Shown here: piece by piece, positions 10,023 through 64,000 of the stretch | How the letters are laid out: each line of letters opens with the position of its first letter | Position numbering within the stretch: position 1 is the stretch's first letter | NCBI GenBank assembly: GCA_937903005.1 | Contig: CALFNR010000144.1 | Location: forward strand, 21,948 to 85,947 | DNA: 64,000 nucleotides | DNA from: an uncultured Lachnoclostridium sp. | GTDB taxonomy: Bacteria > Bacillota > Clostridia > Lachnospirales > Lachnospiraceae | Reading direction: 5' to 3' | Notes under the pieces: generated by a model | The model's database searches: none | The model's input: the letters and a program-made list of their open reading frames with translations, nothing else | Told to the model about the DNA's origin: nothing | Position numbers and translations under genes: made by a program

Positions 10023-10409
10023 ATGAGTTCAAAGAGGTATGACATAATGAAAAAGAAAAAAATAGTGGTAGTTCCAGCGAAGCAAATAAATGATAAGTTT
10101 ACGATGGTTTCAAACGCTAGTATTACTTTGTTGGATAGTAAGAGCTTCCACATATATTGTTACTTACTAAGTTGTTGTGACGAGTCAAGCTATTGCTATC
10201 CTTCATATGATGATATTCAAGAGAAGCTAGGAGTAACAAGGCACACCATATCGGATTGCCTAAAATTCCTTTCAGAATTTGGATTAATAGATATCCAAAA
10301 AAGGAAAACTGGTACGTACTTCAATAATGCTTATGTAGTATATGGAATAGTAAAAGTATCGGAGATAATTGAAAAAGAGGATGTGATCATCGAGAAAGAA
10401 GTGGCTTAG
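10023..10409 (+). CDS. winged-helix/HTH DNA-binding protein
   Basis: YPSYDDIQEKLGVTRHTISDCLKFLSEFGLID is HTH-like. GGAGGG RBS. Confidence 0.6.
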   Translation: MSSKRYDIMKKKKIVVVPAKQINDKFTMVSNASITLLDSKSFHIYCYLLSCCDESSYCYPSYDDIQEKLGVTRHTISDCLKFLSEFGLIDIQKRKTGTYFNNAYVVYGIVKVSEIIEKEDVIIEKEVA

Positions 10410-10447
10410 GCCGCTCTTTTTTTTGGGAATTTTATAAGCTCAAAATT

Positions 10448-10513
10448 GAGTGTTCTTTTAAACACTGGGCTTAGTGTCTTTTTAACCACCCAGCTTAGTG
10501 TTTTTTTAGACAC
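10448..10513 (+). repeat. three 18-bp direct repeats at 24-bp spacing (candidate iterons/operators)
   Basis: GAGTGTTCTTTTAAACAC, TAGTGTCTTTTTAACCAC and TAGTGTTTTTTTAGACAC start at 10448, 10472 and 10496. Each has the internal dyad GTGT..ACAC. Confidence 0.65.
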
Positions 10514-10831
10514 CATAACAATAACCATATAACAATACTAATATAATAATATCCAATACATACGGCCGATAAAATCGTCCGTTTCAATGAAAAAAAATTA
10601 AGTAATGAAAAAAACGAGCTCGTATTTCAGTCATTAAGCTGCCTGAAAAAAGTTTTTGGTATAAAACATCGTCTAGACGTCAATACTCAACTATGAGCCA
10701 TATAAAGCCATTACGGAGTGATTAGCAAAAAATTAAATTTAGAAGAAAGTTAAAATAGTTATTTTATCTTACAAAAGTACATATAATTAATAGAAAAATC
10801 AAAAATGATGTAAAAATGATTAAAATAGAAA

Positions 10832-10860
10832 TTGAAAATGTAATAGATATATGGTATAAT
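10832..10860 (+). promoter_or_regulatory. consensus sigma-A promoter (extended -10)
   Basis: TTGAAA-N17-TATAAT with TGg immediately upstream of the -10. No ATAAATAT tail. Confidence 0.65.
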
Positions 10861-10891
10861 ATTCTTATTAAAAATAGCGGAGGTCATTAGT

Positions 10892-11332
10892 ATGAAAATA
10901 CAAGAGCTTAAGGCACTAAACGAGCAGGAACAAGTGAAATTTATAAATAATAGGCTAGCGGAATTAGAAGAGAAAAAGCTAACTGAAAAAGAGTTCAAAT
11001 GCGAGCTTCTTTCATTCTCGTATAATGCTGCGACAAAGCATATGGAAGAAATGGGCTATGAGCTAAGAGATGGCCGTTTCATCAAAAGATTGACAGCGAG
11101 TGAGATTGAAGCACTAAGAAGAATGCTAGATCATGAAAACTTATTTTATAGAGCATTCAGTCTAGGTGCAAAAATTAACATTAATAGAAATGACGAAGTA
11201 CAAGCTACAACAGTTCGTGTCTATAAGCAAGTTTGGGAAGACTGGAACCAGTTCTGCAAAGAAAAATCTGCAATCAGTAAGGAAGAACTTTTGACTACCG
11301 CTTTAGAGCAGTTCATGCGCGATTATAGATAA
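10892..11332 (+). CDS. hypothetical protein with C-terminal ribbon-helix-helix-like segment
   Basis: TTVRVYKQVWEDWNQFCKE..SKEELLTTALEQFM has a strand-helix-helix pattern. GGAGG RBS and its own consensus promoter. Confidence 0.5.
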   Translation: MKIQELKALNEQEQVKFINNRLAELEEKKLTEKEFKCELLSFSYNAATKHMEEMGYELRDGRFIKRLTASEIEALRRMLDHENLFYRAFSLGAKININRNDEVQATTVRVYKQVWEDWNQFCKEKSAISKEELLTTALEQFMRDYR

Positions 11333-61438: not shown

Positions 61439-61451
61439 ATTAATGACTCCC

Positions 61452-61491
61452 TATATTTATATTGGATAATTAATATCCCTATTATATATAT
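61452..61491 (-). promoter_or_regulatory. late-operon motif (candidate late promoter)
   Basis: Minus strand reads TATATATAATAGGGATAT-N-CAATATAAATATA at the head of the packaging operon. Confidence 0.5.
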
Positions 61492-61553
61492 CTATTTCTT
61501 GGCATTTTGTTAGCCCATAGTAAACCCGAAAAAAAGTTTTTTTTAAAAAAGTG

Positions 61554-61597
61554 TGTACAATCTTGTCGAAATGATATATAATCAATAATATAAATAC
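61554..61597 (+). promoter_or_regulatory. degenerate class-A-like promoter facing the replicon region
   Basis: TGTACA-N17-TATAAT, then CAATAATATAAATAC. Confidence 0.4.
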
Positions 61598-61635
61598 TAA
61601 ATTGAATAGAATTTGTTTGGATAAACAGAAGAAAT

Positions 61636-61644
61636 GTGGATAAT
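61636..61644 (-). promoter_or_regulatory. perfect DnaA box (TTATCCACA on the minus strand)
   Basis: TGTGGATAA. A one-mismatch copy TTTGGATAA lies at 61616-61624. Confidence 0.55.
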
Positions 61645-61700
61645 TACTTGAAATTATATTTAGATTTATGAAGTTATTAACATTTTATTTCCGATATCTG

Positions 61701-61729
61701 TTGATAAATGAAATTCTTGGTGTTATAAT
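61701..61729 (+). promoter_or_regulatory. consensus sigma-A promoter (extended -10)
   Basis: TTGATA-N17-TATAAT preceded by TGt. Confidence 0.6.
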
Positions 61730-61735
61730 GATAAA

Positions 61736-61931
61736 AAAATAACGATAACAAAGCAAGATGTAACGAGATCGCCAAATCTCTTTACAGAAAGAACCTCAAC
61801 TTCTAACTGCTTATAACATATCGCTTGTATTACCGTTATGTGTAAACTATTAATTAGTTTTATACATCTTATTTTAATCGCAAGTCTAGTAAATGTCAAG
61901 GCAAGAAGTGTATTTTCTATGCCTTTTTTTT
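61736..61931 (+). ncRNA. candidate ~195-nt small RNA
   Basis: Bounded by the 61701-61729 promoter and the 61898-61931 terminator. It contains no ORF with an RBS. Confidence 0.3.
61898..61931 (+). terminator. rho-independent terminator
   Basis: AAGGCAAGAA-gtgtatt-TTCTaTGCCTT plus T8. Confidence 0.7.
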
Positions 61932-62731
61932 GTGTATATATCTATATTCACGCAAAAAAGAGGACCGCTTTGGACAGACTGGACGCCGTAACAGTATAAA
62001 CCGTATAAGGTCAGGCCACCCACCGCAAAAATTACAAGGAACGTCGTGAGACGATTCTGGGCCCGGTTCACTTCATATTACACTTGTATGAAGTGATGAC
62101 GTAAGTCCTATTGAAAGTAGCCTACAGGATGTTGAATCTGCGGATATTTAATTTATCTTAGTCCGAGAGGACAGTAAGCCGCTGTAAATTATTACATGCT
62201 TATGGATAAAGAGGTTGGTGTTTGGTTTGCATTAAATTTATTGTTTTACCAAGGATATGTATAGAAAATACGAAAGTATTGACTGGAAGGGCAAAACTCC
62301 AGTTTTGATATGCAATGTAGCTGAAATGCTGCATACTAAAGTGTTGTGTGCGTTGTCGTGTCGTAAACGTCAGACTGATGGCGGTAATAACCCCACATAT
62401 AGTTATTCTAGAGAAGATAAGCAGAACTCTATCTTTTTTTGCCTTTTCCCTAGGATAACTATATATATTGAAGAGCTGAAACGGTAATTATGCTTCGCTC
62501 GACTCACTGTAGTCAACATAAATATTAAATATATAGTTAATATATTAGTTCTTCAATTATATAGTTTATATATCAATAAATCTTTCAGATAGCGATATAT
62601 TAAGATATTGAAGGTATAAAGAATGAAGAAGCTAAGGGGAAGCATAAGTGCAATAACATTAAGAGCATGAAGACGGATCCTAATGATAGAATGAACATCT
62701 AAGTAATTCAGTAAGTAGTCATGGATTATTT

Positions 62732-63137
62732 AAAAATAACCTTTTGACAGTTAAGATTTTTCATGAAGCTATATATGTATATATATAATTACTTTTATTA
62801 CTTTAATACTTAGGACAAACTATTATGAAGTTAAGAGCTGTCAAACCGTGGAAAATCAAGGGGTTGCAGAGTTATCCACAACTACTTAAAAATAACCTAT
62901 CGACAGCTAATTATAACCTAAGGACAGTAATAAAATAACCTTTAGACAGTTTGGGATAATTTGATGATTTCAATAAAATAACCTTTAGACAGTCACCTCG
63001 TTTTGTCATAAAAAGTTATGCACATTTCCAGCATTTCATTAAAAATAACCTTTAGACAGTCAACAAATGGTGGATTCAATCTATTTAAAACGCCTCTTTG
63101 CTAGAATATATGTATTTAAAAATAACCTTTTGACAGT
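62732..63137 (+). repeat. iteron array of the plasmid-type origin (7 direct copies)
   Basis: AAAATAACCTTTWGACAGT at 62732, 62888, 62913 (degenerate), 62932, 62975, 63041 and 63118. An inverted half-site CTGTCAAA lies near 62838. Confidence 0.85.
62872..62880 (+). promoter_or_regulatory. perfect DnaA box
   Basis: TTATCCACA, between iterons 1 and 2. Confidence 0.6.
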
Positions 63138-63247
63138 CTCAATGAAAATCACTATGAATTATACTCATATTGAGCATTGACATACCTGCTAAAACACTAT
63201 AAAATTTAATTAAAATAACCCGAAAGAAGAAAGGTAATAGTTAGACT

Positions 63248-64000
63248 ATGTACGAGCAATTATCACTTCCTATGAACCTAAATTCTAACAATTATGTGGT
63301 TCAAGCAAATGATTTAATTAGTGGAAAACAAACGCTTACATTGAACGAAGCAAAAATATTAAGATTAGCAATTATGCAAATCGTAAAAGAGGACAAACAA
63401 TTCAAACCATATCGTGTTAAAATAACGGATCTTGCTGAAATCCTTGGAATTGATAGCTCAAACATATATCGAGATATCGATAAAATTACTGACGGTTTAA
63501 TGAGTAAATTCGTTAAGATTAAGGACAAAAATAAGCCTAATAGCAAGTCATTTCTCAAATTTAAGTGGGTTGATTATTGCAAATATACAGAAGGCACTGG
63601 CATTATTGAAATTAAGCTCTATGAAGGTTCTGGTGAGGATAAAGGATTACGTCCTTACTTACTTGGCCTAAAGGAATATTACGCTCAATACCCTTTAGAG
63701 AATATATTAGCTATGAACTCCGTTTATGCTATTAGAGTATTTGAATTACTTCAAGCTAAAATCACACAAAAGGTTCTTCCAAAGGAAGGTGTTCTGGTTC
63801 GATTAACAGTTGACGAAATCAGAGCTGCATGTGAGTGTGAAGATAAATTTACCCAGTTCGGAATGTTTAGGAAGAAAGTCGTTGACATTGCGAAAAAGGA
63901 AATCGAAAGGGTTACTCTATTCACAGTTGATTTTAAATATGTTAAGGAGGGCCGAAAAGTCGTTGCATTTGATATATTGGTTAATATGAAATATCATTGA
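63248..64000 (+). CDS. Rep_3-family (RepB-like) theta-replication initiator
   Basis: YVVQANDLISGKQTLTLNEAKILRLAIMQI is a typical Rep_3 N-terminus. Directly preceded by iterons. TGA at 63998-64000 completes the 250-aa ORF. Confidence 0.85.
   Translation: MYEQLSLPMNLNSNNYVVQANDLISGKQTLTLNEAKILRLAIMQIVKEDKQFKPYRVKITDLAEILGIDSSNIYRDIDKITDGLMSKFVKIKDKNKPNSKSFLKFKWVDYCKYTEGTGIIEIKLYEGSGEDKGLRPYLLGLKEYYAQYPLENILAMNSVYAIRVFELLQAKITQKVLPKEGVLVRLTVDEIRAACECEDKFTQFGMFRKKVVDIAKKEIERVTLFTVDFKYVKEGRKVVAFDILVNMKYH

Follow-up and report, generated by a model that had tools for sequence, protein, structure and literature searches.

A G+C-rich, hairpin-dense non-coding block beside the Rep_3 origin of a gut phage-plasmid: an orphan candidate for a structured RNA

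Among the systems already described, the RNA II pre-primer of ColE1 and the transcriptional activation of ori-lambda offer parallels to the reading favoured here, single-strand initiation signals are known beside plasmid origins (the G-site of R1/R100, the G4-type ssi and ssiA of pAMbeta1), and pSC101, a plasmid of the Rep_3 family, possesses a par locus that functions in double-stranded form by binding gyrase. The phage-plasmids of gut Firmicutes have, to our knowledge, barely been studied, and we know of no account of how they keep up their copy number. Large ornate RNAs, often borne by prophages, make up the families ROOL (RF03087) and GOLLD (RF01998; Weinberg et al., 2017, PMC5737381; cryo-EM preprint 10.1101/2024.12.08.627333). 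The block considered here resembles these RNAs in being phage-borne, several hundred nucleotides long, non-coding and rich in hairpins, and is unlike them in that neither covariance model matched it, even at relaxed thresholds.

The window, i.e., the whole 64-kb stretch of DNA that was analysed, is part of a circle of 86,020 bp (contig C144, whose first 48 bases recur at its end) from a gut Lachnospiraceae bacterium with a host genome of 4.4 Mb. The circle carries a packaging operon, a Rep_3 origin and TubZ partition genes, and the element is therefore a phage-plasmid. Its block lies within a 1.8-kb, ORF-poor control region, between a strong terminator and the AT-rich repeats, iterons and Rep_3 gene of the origin (Table 1), and both flanks are AT-rich and free of ORFs. 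To the left, on the minus strand, stands the packaging operon (zinc-ribbon protein, exonuclease, HNH, TerS, TerL, portal), with two other genes separating the block from TerS; a 0.63-kb ORF-free gap separates TerL from portal in the window. To the right, on the plus strand, the AT-rich tandem repeat follows after about 80 nt and is the probable unwinding region of the origin; the six iterons and the Rep_3 gene come next, and a further iteron copy, in inverted orientation, follows rep at contig 406-428. In Rep_3 replicons at 45-51% identity, the stretch that precedes rep is usually no longer than 550-720 nt and contains no such block; the block is therefore an addition and not a standard part of the replicon. 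More similar Rep proteins are P0002 (68-71% identity) and P0004, P0005 and P0006 (54-60%), and P0099 belongs to a variant strain. A TubZ-like tubulin/FtsZ GTPase gene is located on the same contig outside the window (L060:2827-4299), preceded by a 108-aa winged-helix TubR-like gene with A-rich repeats upstream of it (L060:4330-4600); the TubZ and TubR-like pair is the type III partition system of the phage-plasmid.

Table 1. Coordinates, in the window, of the block and of the features in and around it.
Feature	Position	Strand	Basis
Variant of the phage early promoter cassette, rightward, no gene behind it	61554..61597	+	Promoter scan 10/12
Near-consensus sigma-70 promoter, extended -10, rightward	61701..61729	+	Promoter scan 11/12, TG present
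Terminator T1, 9-bp stem with one bulge, then T8; ends the upstream small-RNA unit	61898..61931	+	Sequence
Flagged block, G+C-richer (40.3%), non-coding, G>C on the plus strand	61950..62450	+	Composition; no coding signal; single copy in genome
Structured core, chain of local hairpins	62030..62340	+	RNA, plus strand, -80.7 kcal/mol, z -2.73
Hairpin 1, C(GUGA)G cap at 62042-62053	62037..62058	+	Pair probability 0.99; GNRA scan
Perfect 10-bp hairpin, 9-nt loop	62068..62096	+	Pair probability 0.99; no T-run after it on either strand
Branched domain: hairpin 2, C(GAGA)G cap at 62161-62172, plus hairpin 62174-62203	62152..62210	+	Pair probabilities 0.92-0.99; GNRA scan
Domain: hairpin 3, C(GAAA)G cap at 62267-62280, plus hairpins 62281-62304 and 62315-62334	62258..62334	+	Pair probabilities 0.78-0.97; GNRA scan
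19-nt inverted repeat around weak hairpin and T7 run (62434-62440), right end of block	62397..62464		Repeat I12, 89% complementary; arms 62397-62415 / 62446-62464
Promoter-like site aimed leftward into the block	62487..62516	-	Promoter scan 10/12
AT-rich tandem 28-nt repeat, probable origin unwinding region	62527..62582		Repeat D4; G+C about 27%
Six 25-nt iterons	62727..63137	+	Repeat D1; internal matches
Rep_3 replication initiator, 250 aa, complete	63248..64000	+	Pfam Rep3_N 3e-33, Rep3_C 1.5e-12; full length confirmed

An earlier note, made from the letters of the DNA, had flagged this stretch as G+C-rich, hairpin-dense and poor in ORFs, and had proposed for it either a large structured RNA or a recombination or partition site; as an observation, the block was confirmed to be real. 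The two G+C peaks described there were recovered by measurement (48.6% over 61961-62100 and 44.2% over 62281-62400), and the block as a whole reaches 40.3% as compared to 25.3% and 28.2% in its flanks (61440-61949 and 62451-63247, respectively) and 34.9% in the window. The 140-nt peak is in the top 0.4% of such windows and constitutes the fourth G+C-richest segment of the window, the sole one of these four outside a long ORF. On the plus strand of the block G exceeds C, like in the sense strands of the phage. The GNRA-capped hairpin (CGTC-GTGA-GACG, 62042-62053) was found where the note had placed it, the GGGCCC palindrome that it names is at 62059, and the stem CACTTCATA/TATGAAGTG, reported at 62069-62095 with 9 bp, actually comprises 10 perfect pairs (62068-62096). 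The recurring word pairs are both present at the stated positions, but as two-copy matches only, one a 7-mer and the other identical at 13/17 positions, and by our own estimate several two-copy pairs of such kind are expected by chance per 500 nt. The terminator-like hairpin followed by T7 (62409-62440) is present but weak (5-bp stem, 13-nt loop), and was unreported by the terminator scan; the inverted repeat that surrounds it shows a local fold with z about -2.7 on both strands.

The block is non-coding, in agreement with the scarcity of ORFs noted earlier. No start codon in it was convincingly preceded by a ribosome-binding site in our scan, and the codon scores of its ORFs ranged from -0.14 to -0.05, against 0.29 +/- 0.11 for real phage genes and below the 5th percentile (0.115) of real 60-codon chunks of the phage. 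No single stop-codon reassignment opened a frame, searches of its ten stop-free frames with Pfam and PHROGs matched no family, and tblastx of the block against the host genome and all fetched loci returned nothing. A 76-aa ORF spans 62257-62484, and the identical sequence occurs on 9 short public contigs that were called independent, with no other relative among 5.8 billion clusters. On the minus strand, a 61-aa ORF (62071-61886) with a GTG start and a codon score of -0.14 would encode one hydrophobic helix and a basic tail; it was never called by gene callers, and among 1.84 billion representatives it had no true relative, two spurious low-complexity matches being the only ones returned.

The hairpins of the block provide a signal that differs between the strands and departs widely from randomness. 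On the plus strand, three GNRA hairpins of 4 or more Watson-Crick pairs fall within 240 nt, while the minus strand has none, all three loops are closed by C-G, and 0 of 5000 dinucleotide shuffles of the block reached three (mean 0.09). Against a background of 29 C(GNRA)G hairpins in 1.58 Mb, or 0.009 per 500 nt, the Poisson P is about 1.3e-7 per 500 nt, a statistic that was devised post hoc, when the hairpins had already been seen, and that survives genome-wide correction by a wide margin. The window contains no second 500-nt stretch with three GNRA hairpins on either strand, nor was a cluster found in about 1 Mb of related phage DNA, and the only other clusters in the 4.4-Mb genome (three within 300 nt) are CRISPR arrays on contigs C17, C64 and C197, where a single repeat hairpin recurs. 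These host arrays (G000:C17:10650-11450, C64:1-700 and 10130-10900, C197:1-3700) consist of 36-nt repeats with a CCCC-GNRA-GGGG hairpin, ending in ACGGAAAC. A CRISPR-repeat mimic, be it an RNA anti-CRISPR or a solitary CRISPR repeat, was rejected because the host repeats align to the block no better than to the rest of the phage-plasmid.

The best hairpins of the block are almost wholly Watson-Crick, and in the predicted fold the 10-bp hairpin is enclosed by a helix (62059-62062 / 62105-62108) of which the GGGCCC palindrome forms part. When the 311-nt core was folded as plus-strand RNA, 0 of 100 shuffles were as good as the native sequence (z -2.73) and the centroid was close to the minimum free energy structure, whereas the minus strand gave a fold 23 kcal/mol weaker (z -1.68); with DNA parameters the two strands behaved alike (z -2.26 on the plus and -2.36 on the minus strand). 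Over the whole 501 nt the fold was not significant with respect to shuffles (z -1.76 and -1.37 on the plus and minus strands), nor was it in most 150-nt windows. Such a signal, confined to one strand and made up of very stable tetraloop hairpins, speaks against sites that act as plain duplex DNA and against neutral decay, and it fits RNA or folded single-stranded DNA.

Relatives of the block were sought in several ways. The Rfam comparison that had been proposed for it, with ROOL and GOLLD included, matched no family: with Rfam 15 nothing in the whole window reached gathering score, neither a 1.9-kb region nor a 516-nt block gave a match at E<=10, and ARAGORN detected no tRNA or tmRNA in the 64-kb window. 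The earlier impression that the block does not look like RNase P, tmRNA or a group I or II intron was thereby borne out. A group I intron was rejected since the RF00028 model, run genome-wide, did not hit the block, and its AT-rich, ORF-free flanks show no exons of an interrupted gene; a sub-threshold group I match is present elsewhere in the host genome (G000:C223:4678-4853 (+), 36.8 bits, E 1.5e-7, gathering score 50). In the host's own genome the block is single copy. No homologue was retrieved by blastn among phage and plasmid records, only chance matches of 20-30 nt appeared in 460 genomes (60 relatives and 400 of the family; blastn), and exact-word scans with four 18-22-mers in viral, genome and metagenome collections gave either no match or chance matches in high-G+C phages; the collections behind this negative include GTDB representative contigs, JGI metagenomes and IMG/VR, and the methods include nhmmer. 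The block was equally missing from the loci of 30 Rep_3 relatives, from the closest phage relative (G061) and from 43 relatives found via TerL, and a single-sequence covariance model of 62034-62212 recovered only the block itself from 0.7 Mb of loci and a further 150 genomes. No relatives of the exonuclease gene were detected in metagenomes and genomes, and duplex prediction revealed no base-pairing target in the rep leader, the upstream small RNA or the late leader. A diversity-generating template repeat was discarded, as no second near-copy exists on the contig.

Structured elements of other kinds are carried by related phages. Six related IMG/VR phage loci (L066, L068, L072, L096 and L101/L102) share an ORF-free element of 220 nt (L066:930-1150, L068:4877-5098, L072:4477-4701, L096:4595-4814 and L101:355-614, on the plus strand of the loci, in TerL sense), located 0.8-3.4 kb upstream of HNH-TerS-TerL in phages of 80-95 kb. 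Compensatory changes affect 15 of its 59 predicted pairs, as compared to 5.1 +/- 1.7 in shuffles and 0-2 with slid partners; it belongs to no Rfam family, its invariant word was found on 8 IMG/VR contigs, and on these grounds it is a candidate for a new structured RNA. The element is absent from the window and not homologous to the block, and homology between the two was rejected accordingly. It shows that structured non-coding elements are maintained close to the packaging genes in this phage clade. Related phages also harbor arrays of tRNA genes (L084:4257-4841, L085:4256-4840, L101:4931-5079, L080:5222-5520 and others), in two cases together with a skipping-rope RNA (RF02924, 65.9 bits), and these arrays and RNAs sit between TerS and TerL or between TerL and portal. 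In L101 and L102 (4855-7001) the TerL match begins only at residue 196, with about 2.1 kb containing tRNA genes between TerS and it, and TerL may be interrupted or rearranged there.

Transcription signals surround the block and do not adjoin it on the left. T1 stops 20 nt short of it, with a T-tract able to pair with the A-run 61954-61959 (inverted repeat I14), and the promoter scan found no promoter between T1 and the block. Two rightward promoters lie farther upstream (Table 1), one of which was recognized as a cassette variant by comparison with ten other copies of the cassette. A second leftward promoter-like site is located at 61899-61871, in addition to the one aimed into the block from the right. 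The near-consensus promoters at 61701-61729 (+) and 61899-61871 (-) converge, about 130 nt apart, across the small-RNA unit ending at T1, with the leftward one aiming into the late packaging operon, an arrangement that suggests transcriptional interference or antisense control.

We tentatively favour, while giving it somewhat less than an even chance, the view that rightward transcription of the block, into the origin, yields a structured RNA specific to this lineage. The promoters at 61554 and 61701 would supply a rightward transcript by read-through of T1, giving a G-rich, C-poor RNA of about 0.5 kb that is not translated and whose 0.3-kb core would fold into a succession of highly stable hairpins, three with C(GNRA)G tetraloops. 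The U-run 62434-62440, immediately short of the origin, would form the end of the RNA, which might act in cis on replication, either by carrying transcription to the origin or as a pre-primer or copy-control RNA. We infer the transcription of the block, the end of the RNA and its role in replication from this arrangement, and the RNA reading is preferred because the strand asymmetry is stronger under RNA rules, because the plus strand has the G>C bias of phage sense strands and because two rightward promoters stand upstream, one of them an early cassette without a gene. The tRNAs, the skipping-rope RNA and the covarying 220-nt element of related phages were also counted in its favour. Counted against it were the lack of a homologue or Rfam family, the position of T1, 20 nt before the block, which plus-strand transcription would need to read through, the weak 3' "terminator", the non-significant fold of the whole block and the failure of duplex prediction to find an RNA target, besides the similar folding of both strands with DNA parameters and the fact that Rep_3 replicons at 45-51% identity work without the block. 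Of the structured-RNA half of the earlier proposal, the strand-specific C(GNRA)G cluster and a core fold that beats shuffles on the plus strand have stood, while an Rfam family, a homologue and a promoter directly upstream did not emerge. Partly supported by strong internal statistics, the idea concerns an orphan candidate represented by one sequence. An unlikely extension of it would make the block the first member, known so far from a single lineage, of a new class of structured RNAs in phage-plasmids, 0.3-0.5 kb long, built from hairpins with C(GNRA)G caps and produced next to an iteron origin; such an RNA would regulate how the episomal prophage replicates or, in the manner of ROOL and GOLLD, form a higher-order particle by way of tetraloop contacts. 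If true, gut phage-plasmids would have a new control part, a folded RNA or single-stranded DNA module connected to a Rep_3 origin.

C(GNRA)G loops are very stable also in single-stranded DNA, and d(C-GNRA-G)-type mini-hairpins, which are exceptionally stable, occur in the origins of single-stranded DNA phages. As the main alternative, the block might be an accessory of the origin that folds as DNA: the AT-rich region would melt, the helicase would move leftward, and the exposed plus strand would fold into an entry site for primase or a primosome that primes the leading strand. This somewhat unlikely alternative assumes a leftward fork, for which the plus strand, as we reason from fork polarity, is the leading-strand template, like at the R1 G-site. 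It is consistent with the short distance to the AT-rich repeats and iterons, with best hairpins that are almost all Watson-Crick and fold significantly under DNA parameters, and with T1, which shields the block from rightward transcription. However, with DNA parameters the strands are equal and the clear advantage of the plus strand appears only with those of RNA, no primase start motif could be assigned, and related Rep_3 replicons do without such a block. If, on the other hand, the block were a functionless remnant, left by a gene that has decayed or by a captured piece of foreign DNA whose composition has yet to become as AT-rich as that of the intergenic DNA around it, its coding-like G+C, its sense-like G>C skew and its absence from every relative examined would follow, together with the early promoter cassette that stands upstream as if its gene had been lost and the 8-nt direct repeats (TGCCTTTT) at both ends (repeat D12). 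We consider such a remnant decidedly unlikely, as no translated similarity was found with Pfam, PHROGs, tblastx against the host and the fetched loci, or protein databases, the sequence of the 76-aa ORF is exactly the same on its 9 independent contigs, and decay leaves unexplained both the three one-strand C(GNRA)G hairpins (P about 1e-7) and the z of the core.

A recombination or partition site was the other half of the earlier proposal, which found no support. In favour of a site acting as duplex DNA, whether for partition (a centromere), for recombination (attP included) or for packaging (cos), the block is non-coding, G+C-rich and palindromic (GGGCCC, the 10-bp and the 19-nt inverted repeats), it lies upstream of the HNH-TerS-TerL operon, and long ORF-free regions occur there in related phages too. 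Nevertheless, two other genes stand between the block and TerS, no repeated binding sites exceed chance, and palindromes bound as duplex give no reason for three GNRA spacers on the same strand, so that a site of this sort appears very improbable. The attB-like match to be looked for in the host genome was not found at 18 nt or more; attP was rejected as the best host matches, of 16-17 nt, are at chance level, none was significant in 460 related genomes, and the recombinase genes lie far off, at 27 kb and 54 kb. A partition centromere (parS or tubC) was rejected because TubZ and the TubR-like gene, with their own repeats upstream of tubR, lie 5.9 kb away, the contig has no ParA or ParB gene and the block no repeat array. 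The minus strand was considered as well. From the promoter-like site at 62516-62487, which scores 10/12, the block would be read as the long leader of a leftward transcript, maybe encoding the 61-aa product as a type I toxin-like membrane peptide, with a 3' end overlapping the convergent small RNA that ends at T1. The hydrophobic helix and basic tail of the peptide, the convergence with the unit of the 61701 promoter and T1, and a start codon inside the 10-bp hairpin, a geometry known for toxin mRNAs, point in this direction. We hold this reading to be hardly credible, since the GTG start has no ribosome-binding site, the codon score is as low as -0.14, and relatives and gene calls for the ORF are missing, while the minus strand has no GNRA hairpins, folds more weakly and is followed by no terminator in the terminator scan. 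For a type I toxin-antitoxin pair as such, the convergent geometry is the one feature that fits; it was rejected on the ribosome-binding site, the codon score and the absence of relatives.

When set beside the systems described above, the block is smaller than ROOL and GOLLD, which measure about 580-800 nt and build multistem junctions and pseudoknots, whereas the block has at most 500 nt and is predicted to form a 0.3-0.5 kb chain of mostly serial local hairpins. Neighbouring tRNAs, frequent for ROOL and GOLLD in phages and prophages, do not occur in the 64-kb window, and unlike these families it has no relatives. Single-strand initiation signals are similar in being hairpin-dense, strand-specific, non-coding and situated close to where an origin unwinds; they are about 50-150 nt long with two or three hairpins, as compared to a core of about 310 nt, and the likeness is one of position and foldability, with a strand asymmetry of the block that is stronger under RNA than under DNA energy rules. 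With ColE1 RNA II and ori-lambda, the block as proposed shares loosely a folded RNA of about 0.5 kb that is not translated, heads for the origin and ends beside it, and which here we infer to be made. It differs in that its origin is of the iteron/Rep_3 type with an initiator of its own, and in having no promoter at its 5' end and no antisense gene resembling RNA I opposite to it. The one-strand GNRA signal has no counterpart in pSC101 par; yet block and par are alike in being non-coding, in carrying inverted repeats, in acting in cis, as we propose for the block, and in adjoining a Rep_3 iteron origin.
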